DNA from: Promethearchaeota archaeon Loki_b32
Lineage (GTDB): Archaea > Asgardarchaeota > Lokiarchaeia > Sigyniarchaeales > SOKP01
DNA length: 16,179 nt
Assembly (NCBI GenBank): GCA_005223125.1
Contig: NJBH01000056.1
Span: 1 to 16,179 of the forward strand
Direction of reading: 5' to 3'
Position 1 is the stretch's first letter. Every line of letters begins with the position of its first letter. The notes beneath the pieces are model-generated. The model had not been told where the DNA came from, did no database searches, and saw only the letters and a list, made by a program, of their open reading frames with translations. Shown piece after piece: positions 235 through 15,260 of this stretch. The position numbers and the translations under genes are program-made.

Positions 235-1486
235 ATGGCTGATTTAGATCAAGTGAAAGGAATCGCAGCTCGTCAAATCAAACTTCTCCAAGAAAATGGG
301 ATAAGTACTGCTGAGGCTTTGGCAATGAGTCCTCATTCTACGGTCGCTTCTATTGATGGTCTTGGAGAAAAGACCACTAAAAAGTTGATATGGAATGCAA
401 GAAATGCATTAGGTATGACTGAGTTTACAACAGCTGCAAAGATTGATGACAATGTAGAATATTTTACAACTGGTTCTGCTGAATTAAATCGCATTTTAGG
501 TGGGGGATTTCAAACCGGAAAGTTAACCGAAGTGTATGGACCATTTAAGTCTGGAAAAACTGCCTTAGCTCATACACTTTCAGTTACAGTCCAATTGCCT
601 CAAAAGAAAGGCGGAATCGATGGTGCTGTTGCCTATGTAGATACGGAGAATACCTTTTCAAAAGAGAAAATAAAAAGAATTGCCAAACGATTTGAACTTA
701 ACCCTGGTGATGTATTATCAAAGATATTTCATGCTCGAATTTATTCTTCTGACCACCAATCACAAATGATCCAGAAGGCGGAATCACTCTGTAAAACACG
801 TGGAGTACGATTAATAATAGTTGATAGTCTGATGGCATTACTTAGATCAGAATATGTAGGCATAGGAAAGCTAGCTCCAAGACAGGCAGTTTTGAATCAG
901 ATGATTCATGGCTTATCTCGAATTGCTGAGACGTATAATTGTGCCGTGTTACTCACAAATCAAGTAGCTGTCAAAATGATGGGCATGTTTTCTTCTAATA
1001 ACGCGATTGGGGGGAATAGTGATAATATATTTAATATATCACTCTCAAATAGTAGCCCATGGATGTCATTTTCGAGTAATGTTCAAGACGAAGGGGTTCT
1101 CAGCGAATAATTCACTAAAGCGACGGGCTGTTATAGTTGATGCTCCTGATTTACCTCCAGAAGAATGCGAGTTTTTCATAACAGGTGCTGGTGTTGCTGA
1201 CACCGATAAGGTAGAGCTTACAGAAGCAACTGGTCTTGATTTTAAAGTGGAGTCTCTCTATGAGGAGGAGGATGCGATTGAAAATGGAACGAATTCAGGT
1301 GTCCCATCAGAATCTGAAATACCATTAACCCTAGTAAAAGGCATAGGGAAGGGGACTGTTGAAAATCTCAATGCTCAAGGAGTTAACAGTATTTCAGAGT
1401 TATTAGCAGTTTTCTGGATGATGTTTCCTAATTTCAAATCCTTTACCTCTCTTAACATGCTTAAACACTTAGATAATATCATTTAA
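235..1486 (+). CDS. radA: RadA/Rad51-family recombinase with C-terminal HhH extension, split by a 31-nt intron-like insertion; predicted join(235..1017,1049..1486), 406 aa
   Basis: N-terminal HhH domain, Walker A GPFKSGKT, Walker B LIIVDS, YVDTENTF, TNQV. The frame changes between NAIGGN and IVAHGCHFRV, and removing 1018-1048 gives GGNIVAHG. C-terminal HhH VKGIGKGTVENL. The last ~25 aa come from the antisense of a neighbouring pseudogene. GGAG SD at 216-219. Confidence 0.93.
1018..1048 (+). other. Candidate bulge-helix-bulge(-like) intron in radA mRNA, 31 nt
   Basis: GGGA 1012-1015 pairs with UCUC 1043-1046 (one G-U). 3-nt bulges are AUA 1016-1018 and AAA 1047-1049. Intron stem GUGAUA 1019-1024 / UAUCAC 1037-1042. 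Cutting after the second nt of each bulge restores the frame. The exon-side helix is weak or shifted. Confidence 0.8.
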
Positions 1487-3822: not shown

Positions 3823-3837
3823 TTTTTTGTTTAAATA
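3823..3837 (+). promoter_or_regulatory. T-tract + TATA motif upstream of the TFB-like gene
   Basis: TTTTTTGTTTAAATA, ~50 nt before ATG 3886. The T-tract could also terminate FEN1 transcription. Confidence 0.6.
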
Positions 3838-3885
3838 TCCTCAGTTTATTCATTGGTAACGAAAATTGGTAAAATTGAGGAAGTC

Positions 3886-4488
3886 ATGACTCAGACTCTG
3901 AAAAAACAGGATATTAATATTGATAGTGGTTCTGACTATTATACTAAATTTTATAAGAAACCAAGTGAAGTTAGAGAAACGGTTTTGAATTATTTATTTC
4001 GGAACATCTCTTTTTCTACAAGACGGGATAAAATTAGAGCCGTAACCATTAATGAGAATAATCAGGTTAGTGATATTACTGGAGTTCCTGAGTTTCTTGT
4101 CCATAAATTTATCAGTAGATGTCTTGTAGATATTGTAGTATTTAAGAATTTTCTGAGGGAAAACCCGACCGTCTTAAACTATAAAGGCAAATTACTCATG
4201 ATAAAAATATTATTACGTAAAATCTATCGTCTTGTTCCTGTATTTAATTTAAGAAGAGCAATCGAAAATGCGAGAAGACTTCAAGAGAAATTGGGTAGAC
4301 TGTATTTTTGGCCACAGATCATGACTCAAGTAGCGGTCGTCATTTTTATTACCGACTTGTTAGATACCCAAAGAGATATGAAAGTTATACAATCTAATTT
4401 GAGAGTTTTATGTAGTTGCTCTGCTTATGCGTTTCATAGGACTCGTAATAAAATAGGATTGACTTCTGAGTATATCAAGAGCCTATAA
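3886..4488 (+). CDS. Hypothetical protein with a divergent TFB/TFIIB-like C-terminal cyclin repeat and no Zn ribbon
   Basis: ATG 3886 follows GAGG (the ORF track starts at TTG 3853). RRAIE...P..TQVAVVIFITDLLD...KVIQSNLRVLCSCSAYAFHRTRNKI aligns by eye with the archaeal TFB repeat-2 pattern RRAIE...P.GLVAAALYIASLLE.K.TQ.EVA.VA.VTEVTVRNRYKEL. A partial paralog at 13920-14199 supports coding status. Confidence 0.6.
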   Translation: MTQTLKKQDINIDSGSDYYTKFYKKPSEVRETVLNYLFRNISFSTRRDKIRAVTINENNQVSDITGVPEFLVHKFISRCLVDIVVFKNFLRENPTVLNYKGKLLMIKILLRKIYRLVPVFNLRRAIENARRLQEKLGRLYFWPQIMTQVAVVIFITDLLDTQRDMKVIQSNLRVLCSCSAYAFHRTRNKIGLTSEYIKSL

Positions 4489-7578: not shown

Positions 7579-7856
7579 GATTTAGATCACTAAATAATTT
7601 CTGAATTTTTTTTATTATATAAGATTAATATGTTATAAAATTGTGAATCCAAATAAAAATAATATTTATTGGATACTTTAAGATTTTAATAAACCAAATA
7701 TATCATAACAATTAAGAATATTGAATTTTTATTTTCAAAATCATCAAAAACTCAAAATTCCAATTTTCAAAAAACAATACATTTCACATAAGAGTTTTGG
7801 ATTTACATATTTAATTTAATAAATTTATTCTGTAGCTCAAATTTAAAGAAAAAAAA

Positions 7857-10477: not shown

Positions 10478-10492
10478 TTTTTTCTTTAAATA
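10478..10492 (+). promoter_or_regulatory. T-tract + TATA motif upstream of the small ORF-RPA unit
   Basis: TTTTTTCTTTAAATA, conserved in the paralogous copy at 15245-15259. Confidence 0.65.
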
Positions 10493-11745: not shown

Positions 11746-13187
11746 ATGACAAGACATTACCCTTCATTTGCAATCATCACTGCATTAGAGAAAGAATACA
11801 GAACAGTTAAGATATTATTCAAACATAGGACAAAGGAGATTATTGAAGAGGTCTCAAGTTCTGAAGAAGTTTCCAAACGTGTTTTTGGAGAGATTCATAG
11901 CATTGACGGAGGGATACATGAAGTAGTTTTGTCAAAATTACCAGATATGGGGAATTTGGAAGCAGCGGTGGAATGTGAGAAATTGTTACAGACCTATAAA
12001 AGCATAAGGCATGTTCTTATGGTAGGAATAGCAGGAGGAATTCCTAATCTAAAGAAACCTAAGCATCATGTACGTTTGGGAGACATTGTCGTTTCCAAGG
12101 GAGTGATAGATTATGGCAATGTAAAATTGGAATCATTACGATATAACAAAATAATACCGAGACCAAAAAACAGGAAAGCTTCCGACATGTTGGTGGAAAA
12201 TGCTAAGAAGTTAAAAAATATATCTGATTCTCAAAAGCCTCCTTGGATTGAACATATAGCCCGTTGTGCAAGGGAACTTGGTGTTACCCGCCCTACTAAG
12301 GATATTCTATGGGTGCTAGAACGCAATGAAAATGGAAAGAATTTGTTGAGAGAGCTTTAGATAATAATCTTAATTTGCTCCAATTCGAAGAACTTTTTGA
12401 GGAGCATTATGAGGAACTATATGATATGAGGCCTGTAGAACATCCTCCCCAAGAGAGACCTAGAGATGAGCCGCTAATATTTATTGCCCCTATCGCTTCA
12501 GCAAACATTTTATTAAAAGATGAAATATTGAGAAATCGACTTCGGAAGAAAAAAGCTAAAGCCGTTGAAATGGAAAGTGCAGGAGTTGTTACTGCATGTA
12601 AGCGTGAAGAGAAGAATTTCATATCTATTAGAGGGATTTGTGATTACTGTAACTGGAAAAAAGATGATGAATGGCAAGAATACGCTGCCATTGTAGCTGC
12701 GGGTTTCACAATAGCATTTATTGAAATTCTACCTTCTGATTTAAAAGTAGATCCTGTCATCTTAAGTAATAGAGATCTTTTTTTTAACCTCATAGGTTTA
12801 ATTTTAATTATTCTTATTGCTGCAGGAATAGCTAATTTACTAAAACCAGATTTTTTTCTCTTTATTTTATATTTAGGGTTTCTTATATTCTATCTGTTTC
12901 TTCTTAGGTATACATATGACTACTGGAAAAGATATCGACAAGAGAGATTAAAACAAATCATGACAAATGTCTTAGGCTCATTATTTTTTTTTATTCCTGT
13001 TATTTCAATTTTTGTAAGGCTGTTTTATATTAATCAGGATAAAATTCCATATTTCATTTTTATAATGGTTGTTTTTAGTTTATTGTTTGAGTATCTTTAC
13101 AGATATAAGCCATTTAATCGCATTAAAATATTATATATTCTACTCGTAATTGCAGGCATCATGTCAATACCTTACATTCTCCGCTAA
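11746..13187 (+). CDS. PNP_UDP_1 (MTA/SAH nucleosidase-like) domain fused to ~5 TM helices, with a single frameshift; ~480 aa if joined
   Basis: IITALEKEY, MGNLEAA, VLMVGIAGG, VRLGDIVVS in ORF1; IASANILLKD, AVEMESAG, IRGICDY, KDDEWQEYAA in ORF2. The second frame is open from 12330 (KWKEFVERALD...), and one extra A in the A4 run at 12329-12332 joins the two. Confidence 0.85.
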
Positions 13188-13307: not shown

Positions 13308-13924
13308 TTATCGATTCCAAAATCTTCCTGAGAGGGTGGATATTATTCCCTTTCTATCTGGAATCACCCGTACCTCACTATTTACCCATTCTGAAATCCA
13401 CTTCATTCTTCTATTAAACCGTTCATCCATAAAAATAATTAATCCTTTATCAGTCTTTCTTCTTATCGGTCTTCCTGAAGCTTGGTTTGCCCTCTGCATT
13501 GCTGGATAAAGATATGCAAAATTCAATCCTTGCCTATTAAATTGGGTATCGTAATATTTTATTTTTGCCTCTACTCGTGGGGTAGGTAAGTGATAAGGAA
13601 TTCCAACAATTATAACAGAATTCATGAAACCACCTGGATAATCTTCACCCTCAGAATTTCTCCCACCACAAACTCCTAATAATACTGCTCCCTGTTTATT
13701 AGAACATGCTTTAAATTCATCAAGCATATCTGCATTATCAGAGGCGGATTTTTGAGAGTTTTCAATAAATAATTCTTTCCCATACTTATTGACCATGGAA
13801 GCAAATTTATAAGTCATTCGAACATCATTTAAGAGCCCATCTAATATTTTATAAGAAGCACAAAATACCCCAATATTTGCAGGAGTAGTTGAGACTACTT
13901 CCTCAATTTTATATACAATTTTTT
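13308..13924 (-). pseudogene. 3' fragment of an XPD/Rad3/DinG-family helicase (HD2 only)
   Basis: TPANIGVFCASY, GGRNSEGEDY (motif V), VIIVGIPY, QASGRPIRRKTDKG.I.FMDERF (motif VI). Homology extends upstream of the called ATG 13817 to ~13924 and then stops; Walker A, DEAH and FeS regions are absent. Confidence 0.85.
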
Positions 13925-14199
13925 CATCGTCTTGCTCCCATTTTCGATTTAAAAAGAGCTAAAGAGAATGCGAAAATACTTCAGGAGAAATTAAGAAGAT
14001 TATGCATTTGTCCACAGGTCATGACTCAAGTTGCTGTTATTATTTTTATCACGGATTTGCTTGATAATACCTTATTTCGGAAGTACCAGAAGATTATACA
14101 ATCCAATGTAAGGGTGCTTTGTAATTGTTCTGCGTACGCATTTCATAGGACTCGTAATAAAATAGGGCTGACTCCTAAATAGATCAAGGGTTTATAATC
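13920..14199 (+). pseudogene. 3' fragment of a paralog of the TFB-like gene
   Basis: HRLAPIFDLKRAKENAKILQEKL...CSAYAFHRTRNKIGLT matches the C-terminal ~90 aa of 3886..4488. K*IKGL* aligns with EYIKSL*. The called first ~10 aa are antisense XPD. Confidence 0.85.
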
Positions 14200-14347: not shown

Positions 14348-14944
14348 GTGAAAGGACTGAAAAATTTAAATAAAAAATTAGTTTTAGCATTTTGGATAAT
14401 CAGTATGATGGGTTTATCAGCGTTTCCTATATTTGTCAATGCAGGAATAGTACCGCCAGACGATGATCCACCACCAAGAGATCTTAACTGTGAAGCTCAA
14501 GTAAGAGCTTATCGTAGTGGAGGTTTACAATTTACATTTAAGGTTGTAGCAGGTGCTATTGTTGGTGAAATCTATGGAAATCCTCTATTAGTAGTTTGTT
14601 ATGGATTATTTGAAGAACCCATAGATTGGAGACCTTTTAATAATTTTGTCTGGGATATCTTAGGGATTGATCATGAATATTACTATAATTTTGGATCTCA
14701 GAGGGTTGGGTATAAACTCACTGTAACATTTAGAATCAGAAACAGAAATAATGGATTTCACCTGGATTTTGAATTATCAGCGTGTGTTCATCTTTGGTAT
14801 TATGAATTTGGTTATAGAAAGGTAAGCTGGAATGTACCAGCTGAAGGACCTGGAGGTCCTTGGGTGCTCATTCTTGATGATGTATCAAAAAACCCCCAAT
14901 TTATTGATGACTGGGTTGGACTTTTATTAGGAGGACCCTATTAA
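14348..14944 (+). CDS. Secreted, aromatic-rich hypothetical protein with Pro-rich mature N-terminus; paralog of 1904..2458
   Basis: Signal peptide ending FVNA, then GIVPPDDDPPP; C-terminal GPW...DD.S.N....D.W.. motif. Own BRE-TATA at 14263-14279 and T-tract at ~14973-14981. Confidence 0.78.
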   Translation: MKGLKNLNKKLVLAFWIISMMGLSAFPIFVNAGIVPPDDDPPPRDLNCEAQVRAYRSGGLQFTFKVVAGAIVGEIYGNPLLVVCYGLFEEPIDWRPFNNFVWDILGIDHEYYYNFGSQRVGYKLTVTFRIRNRNNGFHLDFELSACVHLWYYEFGYRKVSWNVPAEGPGGPWVLILDDVSKNPQFIDDWVGLLLGGPY

Positions 14945-15098: not shown

Positions 15099-15260
15099 AA
15101 ACCTTTCGCCATCTCTAAATTATTTTCCATCGGAAATAAAGGTGTTCTCATTTATTCCGTTTGGGAGATCCTTATTCTCAGTGATTATGACACAAATTAT
15201 GATCAGATCATTTCACCATCACTGAATTTAGTACCCAATCTATCTTTTTTCTTTAAATAT
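15099..15260 (+). repeat. ~160-bp diverged repeat (copy B), ending in the T-tract + TATA motif (15245-15259)
   Basis: Colinear with 16-177. Confidence 0.75.

Follow-up and report, generated by a model that had tools for sequence, protein, structure and literature searches.

Why does a gene of the RadA/Rad51 family change reading frame inside a conserved motif, and what could put the frame right? In the window (the whole 16,179-nt stretch of contig NJBH01000056.1 of the Promethearchaeota archaeon Loki_b32), an open reading frame (ORF) at positions 235 to 1110 (291 aa) and the frame from 1007 to 1486 are the two halves of a single gene of this family, with matches to the Pfam families Rad51 and HHH_5 in a profile scan. 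The initial annotation had placed the frame change in the motif GG[NH]I[VL]AH, attributed it to a 31-nt insertion, and named the gene radA. The insertion was confirmed, as removal of positions 1018 to 1048 yields the peptide of the orthologues. The family assignment was also right, while the name was not, since the genome has an intact canonical radA as a separate gene (contig C18, 332-aa ORF), which scores 334 bits on RadA models versus 272 bits for the interrupted gene. Exon 1 is 83 to 92% identical to same-genus orthologues and 39% identical to the canonical RadA of the genome; the orthologues are ca. 410 aa long and have a second HhH domain, and the homologues are labeled Promethearchaeota or Lokiarchaeota. 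By these comparisons, the interrupted gene is a RadA paralogue and not the canonical housekeeping radA, which has ca. 330 aa and lacks the C-terminal HhH. The parts of the gene are as follows.

235 to 1017, + strand: exon 1, residues 1 to 261 (N-terminal HhH, Walker A motif GPFKSGKT, ATPase core up to GGN)
1018 to 1048, + strand: candidate intron, 31 nt, absent from 29 orthologous loci
1049 to 1408, + strand: exon 2, native part, residues 262 to 381 (IVAH, last ATPase-core strands, acidic linker, half of the second HhH)
1108 to 1110, + strand: stop codon of the unspliced frame, giving 291 aa (261 native and 30 foreign residues)
1409 to 1486, + strand: foreign 25-codon tail in place of the last 31 native residues

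The native part of exon 2 was delimited by its match to intact orthologues, the alignment to solved RadA/Rad51 proteins reaching residue 312; the second HhH corresponds to an HHH_5 match in an intact orthologue, and the native part holds its first half. The insert site aligns with the GGHILAH motif of solved RadA, a type of motif that we take to be the end of DNA-binding loop L2. The unspliced product would lack core residues 262 to 312, in agreement with the earlier description of a 291-aa RadA without the end of its ATPase core.

In the same genus and order, 29 insert-free orthologous loci have the peptide IGGN-I[VIL]AHG within uninterrupted frames of ca. 410 aa, and removal of 1018 to 1048 gives IGGN-IVAH, an exact match. 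Among the 18 possible 31-nt deletions, GGN-IVAH results from only two equivalent registers (1018 to 1048, which is the same as 1019 to 1049). These borders, defined by homology, coincide with the cut rule of the archaeal endonuclease EndA (after the second base of each bulge of the RNA fold given below), so that the outcome foreseen from that rule, GGNIVAH with no residue gained or lost, agrees with the 29 orthologues. As in introns of the cbf5 kind, the insert interrupts a coding sequence, and its precise removal restores a conserved protein. Two other classes were rejected: a target-site duplication, read from an AATAGT repeat with a 33-nt spacing, would leave the frame unrestored, and a group I or group II self-splicing intron, with its large ribozyme fold, is at odds with the length of only 31 nt and with the lack of any Rfam match at E values up to 1. 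There is no second copy of the intron in the genome, where the best partial match (19/20, contig C2, opposite strand) lies within an intact gene, so that no recent copy-and-paste family is seen.

The insert follows a run of six G residues, as a homopolymer error or a spurious insert from sequencing or assembly might. Such an artefact is practically out of the question. The identical insert occurs in three independent JGI assemblies, and diverged versions that read GGA GGA, with no G6 run, have the same 31-nt insert in NCBI, ENA, and Logan records. Nor does any orthologue carry an in-frame insert of ca. 10 aa that would leave a single G6 error as the explanation of the frameshift.

In the transcript, the end of exon 1 and the end of the insert can be paired in a BHB-like fold, with which a second hairpin competes.

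1003 to 1009, + strand: 5′ arm of the exon-exon helix, pairing with 1050 to 1056; GG at 1010 to 1011 is unpaired before the central helix
1012 to 1018, + strand: 5′ strand of the central helix (1012 to 1015) and first 3-nt bulge (1016 to 1018); predicted cut 1017/1018
1047 to 1049, + strand: second 3-nt bulge, AAA; predicted cut 1048/1049
989 to 1016, + strand: competing exon-1 hairpin, 989 to 999 with 1006 to 1016; minimum free energy (MFE) fold of 970 to 1075

The central helix, GGGA (1012 to 1015) with UCUC (1043 to 1046), has three Watson-Crick pairs and one G.U pair and lies between the bulges AUA (1016 to 1018) and AAA (1047 to 1049), the first and third bases of the latter being invariant across 12 loci. 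Next to it is a 6-bp stem (1019 to 1024 with 1037 to 1042); the intron hairpin consists of 5 bp, a 1-nt bulge, 4 bp, and a 5-nt loop and is followed by the 3′ strand of the central helix (1043 to 1046). All these coordinates of helix, bulges, and stem were as first proposed. On the exon side, the proposed pairing of 1006 to 1009 with 1050 to 1053 held and was lengthened by GC/GC (1003 to 1004 with 1055 to 1056), while that of 979 to 984 with 1055 to 1060 is now counted as an alternative exon pairing. None of 2,000 dinucleotide shuffles of the insert equaled the observed score of helix plus stem, and the proposed fold is the MFE structure of 1000 to 1062. With respect to the strict and relaxed definitions of the motif (PMC6379350), the 4-bp helix and 3-nt bulges common to both are present, with 4 of 4 central pairs in 17/17 loci, while the strict hBHBh′ form, with the exon helix stacked on the second bulge, is not formed: there are 0 to 2 adjoining pairs, with two unpaired bases between. 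The motif is of the relaxed HBh′/BHL form, not canonical.

Within a 106-nt context, the competing hairpin exceeds the BHB-forced fold in stability, by 4.5 kcal/mol in this gene and ca. 5 kcal/mol at loci L257 and L260; in naked RNA of this strain, it captures the 5′ strand of the central helix, the pair probability of which falls to ca. 0. At 6 of the 12 homologous loci, the BHB fold lies within 0 to 1 kcal/mol of the MFE. RNAalifold favors a helix of 3 bp in which A1018 is paired. This allele may be spliced inefficiently, or it may depend on a ribosome or the enzyme to open the hairpin. The competing hairpin, the RNAalifold preference, the relaxed motif, and the broken C terminus of the gene (see below) all count against a splicing reading.

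What, then, does the evolution of the insert say about its nature? DNA from 17 loci (12 distinct), retrieved from JGI, ENA, NCBI, and Logan, was compared, and the insert measures 31 nt in 17/17. Over the 12 distinct loci, 92.9% of cells were paired (slid controls, 30 to 47%), with 100% in the central helix, 90% in the inner stem, and 86% in the exon-exon helix, which is largely set by the Ala-Ile and Ile-Val-Ala codons. The orthologue alignment brought out both intron-less alleles (29 loci) and covarying introns, with changes on both sides in 8/13 pairs and covariation of 7/9 stem pairs across the 12 loci, although the controls for covariation are not probabilities, because the structure was derived from the same, related sequences. 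Even an exon base takes part: in the second Gly codon, the wobble position and the intron base opposite it change together (A-U at 9 loci, G-C at 3), and this codon is GGA or GGG at all intron-bearing loci, while 17/29 intron-free loci have GGT or GGC. Variability by codon position was flat in the insert (0.23/0.24/0.23) versus 0.01/0.00/0.33 in the exons, so that this pattern and the covariation together exclude a 10-residue insertion plus a homopolymer error. As in the cbf5 kind, there is a conserved structure with a variable interior and no ORF or coding pattern. In the terminal hairpin (alignment A1), the closing A-U pair is invariant and two loop U residues are kept; these features and the stop-free exon-1 frame may reflect common ancestry.

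This stop-free frame, which runs through the insert in 12/12 loci, bears also on translational recoding, in which the RNA would stay uncut and the ribosome would hop over the 31 nt, as in T4 gene 60 or the mitochondrial byps of Magnusiomyces, or shift frame within the insert. The byps are short hairpin inserts in conserved genes, which counts for such a reading. Ribosome hopping requires matched take-off and landing codons, but those here are unmatched (AAT versus CAA; AAT versus TAA or AAC versus CAC in homologues), the exon-2 frame is closed within the insert in 7/12 loci, and the insert has no codon pattern. Recoding also leaves the covarying 4-bp exon-intron helix with its two 3-nt bulges unexplained, and we find it hardly credible. 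Covariation and the noncoding pattern argue against both recoding and decay.

Two EndA genes are present in the genome, together with a gene for RtcB. The alpha gene (contig C18, ca. 184.2 to 184.8 kb) has the triad of Tyr, His, and Lys, while the beta gene (contig C2, ca. 78.4 to 79.0 kb) lacks the His. The KPR loop of the alpha aligns with the specificity loop of PDB entries 3p1z and 3ajv, and in the Aeropyrum EndA, K44-P45-R46 of this loop leads to cleavage of relaxed motifs (PMC12397907, PMC6379350). The genome is thus predicted to encode RtcB and an (αβ)2 EndA with a crenarchaeal-type specificity loop, that is, a putative broad-specificity enzyme with the Lys-bearing loop as defined previously (PMC12397907). 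In the mechanism that we propose, the 4-bp helix would arise from the end of exon 1 and the end of the intron, with a 3-nt bulge at either border, the intron hairpin closing it at one end and a loose exon-exon helix at the other; the host (αβ)2 EndA would cut after the second base of each bulge (1017/1018 and 1048/1049); and RtcB would ligate the exons, restoring the frame. Splicing would be a constitutive requirement, arising from an insertion that persists because it can be spliced. With high confidence, we read the 31 nt as an intron of the archaeal endonuclease type that the mRNA of a RadA paralogue carries, with cutting by EndA and joining by RtcB; transcription, cleavage, ligation, and constitutive character are all predicted from the sequence.

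If the same enzymes act on mRNA in this organism, other genes might carry similar inserts. A motif-free comparison was made with proteins from 2.8 of the 3.3 Mb of a relative (G006), giving a lower bound that misses genes outside the 2.8 Mb and introns common to G006. It revealed seven more frame-breaking inserts of 30 to 31 nt in genes 85 to 93% identical. Six of the seven had the BHB shape at borders defined by homology (0 to 31 of 2,000 shuffles), while the GTPase insert was degenerate; ordinary in-frame protein indels from the same census had no such stems. Six more were added with the motif as a guide, bringing the total to 13 further inserts of 29 to 53 nt in the genome (G000), most of them BHB-shaped, which answers the earlier suggestion to scan the genome for other frameshifted genes with the same geometry.

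C66:7883: pyrG (census)
C3:75804: one of two EF-2 genes, the EF-2 paralogue (census)
C60:2422: acyl-CoA dehydrogenase, ACAD (census)
C32:33921: LsrF-like aldolase (census)
C4:82105: NDP-sugar epimerase (census)
C64:72137: metallo-hydrolase (census)
C63:17590: small GTPase (census)
C24:174991: small Cys-rich protein (motif-guided, 29 nt)
C30:11080: E2 enzyme (motif-guided, 31 nt)
C45:47178: cdhD (motif-guided, 33 nt)
C56:37059: gyrB (motif-guided, 53 nt)
C4:22685: psmA (motif-guided, 29 nt)
C32:11030: HdrB-like gene, a weaker case (motif-guided, 31 nt)

The insert sites are mostly within conserved motifs, and the introns of the genome have no sequence in common with each other. The pyrG insert was also found, with the same fold, in 7/41 genomes of the genus and at six metagenome loci. 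All in-frame inserts tested contained a stop (7/7; joint P of ca. 0.02). When BHB motifs were sought de novo, with no use of homology, 3,183 chance candidates came up. The genome also has tRNA genes of 102 to 119 nt, which point to inserts of ca. 30 nt. To judge from these comparisons, the tRNA-splicing enzymes very probably cut the mRNAs of the paralogue and of the other interrupted genes and join them again.

Two observations concern further split genes. In G006, contig C1 has two 30-nt stop-bearing inserts, near 1505072 (+ strand) and 1410049 (− strand), in genes that look by motif like uppS and cinA and are intact in G000. In the window itself, two frames (11746 to 12360 and 12375 to 13187) each hold part of a nucleoside phosphorylase domain (PNP_UDP_1), and the two parts could be joined by removing 32 nt near 12342 to 12373 (weak BHB with 3/4 helix pairs and a stem of 6) or by a one-base error.

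Is an insert at this site the rule in the family? A search with the frameshifted tail in JGI, ENA, NCBI, and Logan gave at least 35 protein clusters with a 10-codon insert at the site among the best 120, which is not a frequency, as the query favored interrupted copies. The less biased figure is 11/86: in 154 GTDB genomes of the order, there were 11 split copies, in nine genomes of four genera, all from one Lokiarchaeia family and all offset by 31 nt by arithmetic on their coordinates, and 75 intact ones in that family (ca. 87% intron-free). No split copies were found in the other families searched within these 154 genomes. On a quick tree of exon 1, the insert changed state 14 times, at least nine of them forced by strong branches; the deepest sampled lineages of the family carry it, and sisters 96% identical differ in it. 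Because the inserts can be aligned across loci, the simplest reading would be that the family gained the insert once, long ago, after which precise losses or exchanges of alleles recurred, with the direction of change not proven, since sampling favored interrupted copies. As for unusual copies, a partial gene in G044 lacks the N-terminal part and has no intron, and in G129 the paralogue is present three times, once intact and twice with the intron, at 9% contamination and with possibly mixed bins.

This distribution bears on whether splicing could be regulated, gating the recombinase paralogue after DNA damage in the manner of XBP1/HAC1, possibly by means of the competing hairpin, which a ribosome or protein would have to open. 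Without splicing, the product would end inside the ATPase core, the hairpin recurs here, in L257, and in L260, and a role as a negative regulator has been proposed for the cbf5 intron (PMC2738675). A T-rich motif in the window, common to the paralogue, FEN1, and RPA loci, points the same way.

162 to 176, + strand: T-rich upstream motif, a candidate promoter element of a DNA-repair regulon
162 to 176, 2538 to 2552, 3823 to 3837, 7840 to 7854, 10478 to 10492, and 15245 to 15259: all copies of the T-rich 15-mer

The six copies of this 15-mer, at no more than one mismatch (0.10 expected), lie upstream of the RadA paralogue, FEN1, the RPA locus, and others. The motif also occurs 65 to 75 nt upstream of the start in L257, L260, L262, and L263 and in the intron-free L273. 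Being common to intron-bearing and intron-free alleles, it makes induction more likely transcriptional. Against regulated splicing, the canonical radA is intact, so that recombination does not depend on the paralogue alone; intact copies far outnumber split ones, with the repeated changes on the tree and near-identical sister alleles that differ; the competing hairpin is weak in half of the loci; and housekeeping genes (pyrG and gyrB) carry such inserts too. We regard it as improbable, and the earlier idea that splicing is an on-switch for recombination is left without support by the intact canonical radA and the prevalence of intron-free copies. The constitutive splicing proposed above is the reading that we retain. 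The window also has two pairs of paralogous ORFs (1871 to 2458 with 14348 to 14944, and 3853 to 4488 with 13889 to 14182), which by appearance are secreted-looking proteins and TFB-like fragments; three of these ORFs were scanned, with no Pfam match.

The 3′ end of the gene has a separate history. The breakpoint at ca. 1408/1409 is specific to this assembly among the copies compared, the close relatives L257 and L273 retaining the native tail, and the DNA of the foreign tail is the antisense of a broken convergent gene. The latter is a pseudogene on the − strand (1409 to 1764, with a stop and a frameshift), the family of which is intact at L263:4751-5374; it is fused tail to tail with the RadA paralogue by either a deletion or misassembly. 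With its broken C terminus and pseudogene neighbor, this copy may be decaying, and loss of function of the truncated copy, independent of the fate of the intron, is conceivable but unlikely. At least 10 short one-base frameshifts in G000 relative to G006 mark some assembly errors or pseudogenes. An isolated C-terminal remnant of a second paralogue copy lies on contig C21 of G000 (ca. 193750 to 194000, − strand; 71% identity over the HhH domain). A third RadA-like paralogue (ca. 423 aa), present in most same-genus genomes, was not found in G000 (95.5% complete) with the query used.

Should the insertion itself then be seen as inactivating, never removed, and the gene as a pseudogene? The loss of the last 31 residues, the adjoining pseudogene, the masking of the motif by the competing hairpin, and the fact that the paralogue was not found in many relatives among the GTDB genomes of the order would fit. 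Yet in intron-bearing loci variation in the two exons is nearly confined to third codon positions, the insert is 31/31 identical between alleles only 92% identical in exon 1, and it is retained across four genera with compensatory changes. Moreover, the only pyrG and the only gyrB found in the genome are interrupted in the same way. An inactivating insertion is therefore very improbable.

With removal of the insert by splicing as the preferred reading, we think it likely that, in one large Lokiarchaeia family, introns of the tRNA type have come to interrupt the mRNAs of many conserved genes that are unrelated to each other, that each genome has twelve or more of them, sited in core motifs and repeatedly gained and lost, and that EndA and RtcB would act there as a general, spliceosome-free system of mRNA splicing. 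If so, these genomes would hold many intact genes that now bear an annotation as split or broken; pyrG, gyrB, EF-2, and psmA, now with the look of frameshifts or pseudogenes, would have their annotation changed. Asgard archaea are close prokaryotic relatives of eukaryotes, and routine spliceosome-free mRNA splicing in them, if true, would bear on when interrupted genes became tolerable on the way to eukaryotes. The idea can be tested directly: base-exact predictions exist for the junctions, and expression of the enzymes is feasible.

An intron in the cbf5 pre-mRNA was reportedly described by Watanabe in 2002 and by Yoshinari in 2006. The BHB intron of cbf5 pre-mRNA was treated by Yokobori in 2009, in a paper that also speaks of predicted introns in further genes (PMC2738675). 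A systematic study in 2020 gave cbf5 as the only archaeal BHB intron in a coding sequence, the mRNA cases in that paper being cbf5 and a Haloferax 5′ untranslated region (UTR) (PMC7714728). The papers of 2021 to 2026 on Asgard introns, within the mostly nonsubscription literature searched, deal with tRNA genes only. No published intron in a RadA paralogue was found in the searchable literature, which leaves out most subscription journals.

Among known systems, XBP1/HAC1 also has a short frame-shifting intron. There, the exons are joined by a tRNA ligase (RtcB in animals), and Ire1 cuts two separate stem-loops under stress. In contrast, the motif here is BHB-like, the predicted cutter is EndA, and the comparative data speak against regulation. 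Closer is the intron in the 5′ UTR of HVO_1309 of Haloferax volcanii (Schwarz 2020, PMC7714728), which is also a BHB intron in an mRNA and cut by EndA, although it is 46 nt long, lies outside the coding sequence, and restores no frame. The noncanonical tRNA introns of Asgard archaea (PMC11291895; bioRxiv 10.64898/2026.10.13.758758) share the motif, the predicted enzymes, and repeated gain, but those papers, in the passages searched, treat tRNA genes only, while the substrate here is an mRNA with no tRNA body. As to the gene, a second Asgard RadA clade has been described (Matsuo 2025, PMC12722695), so that more than one RadA/Rad51-like gene per genome is common to both cases. The closest likeness is to the cbf5 intron of Desulfurococcales and Sulfolobales (PMC2738675), which is short and ORF-less, lies within a coding sequence, has BHB or relaxed borders and a variable interior, was gained and secondarily lost among relatives, and occurs in hosts with a hetero-oligomeric EndA. 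The cbf5 intron concerns one gene, and its splicing was shown experimentally, while the RadA-paralogue intron is predicted from sequence, belongs to Lokiarchaeia/Promethearchaeota, and would be one of no fewer than a dozen per genome, spread over genes unrelated to each other. On all testable features, the predicted RadA-paralogue intron belongs with those of the cbf5 kind: the mechanism is already known, and the lineage and the many-gene scale are new.
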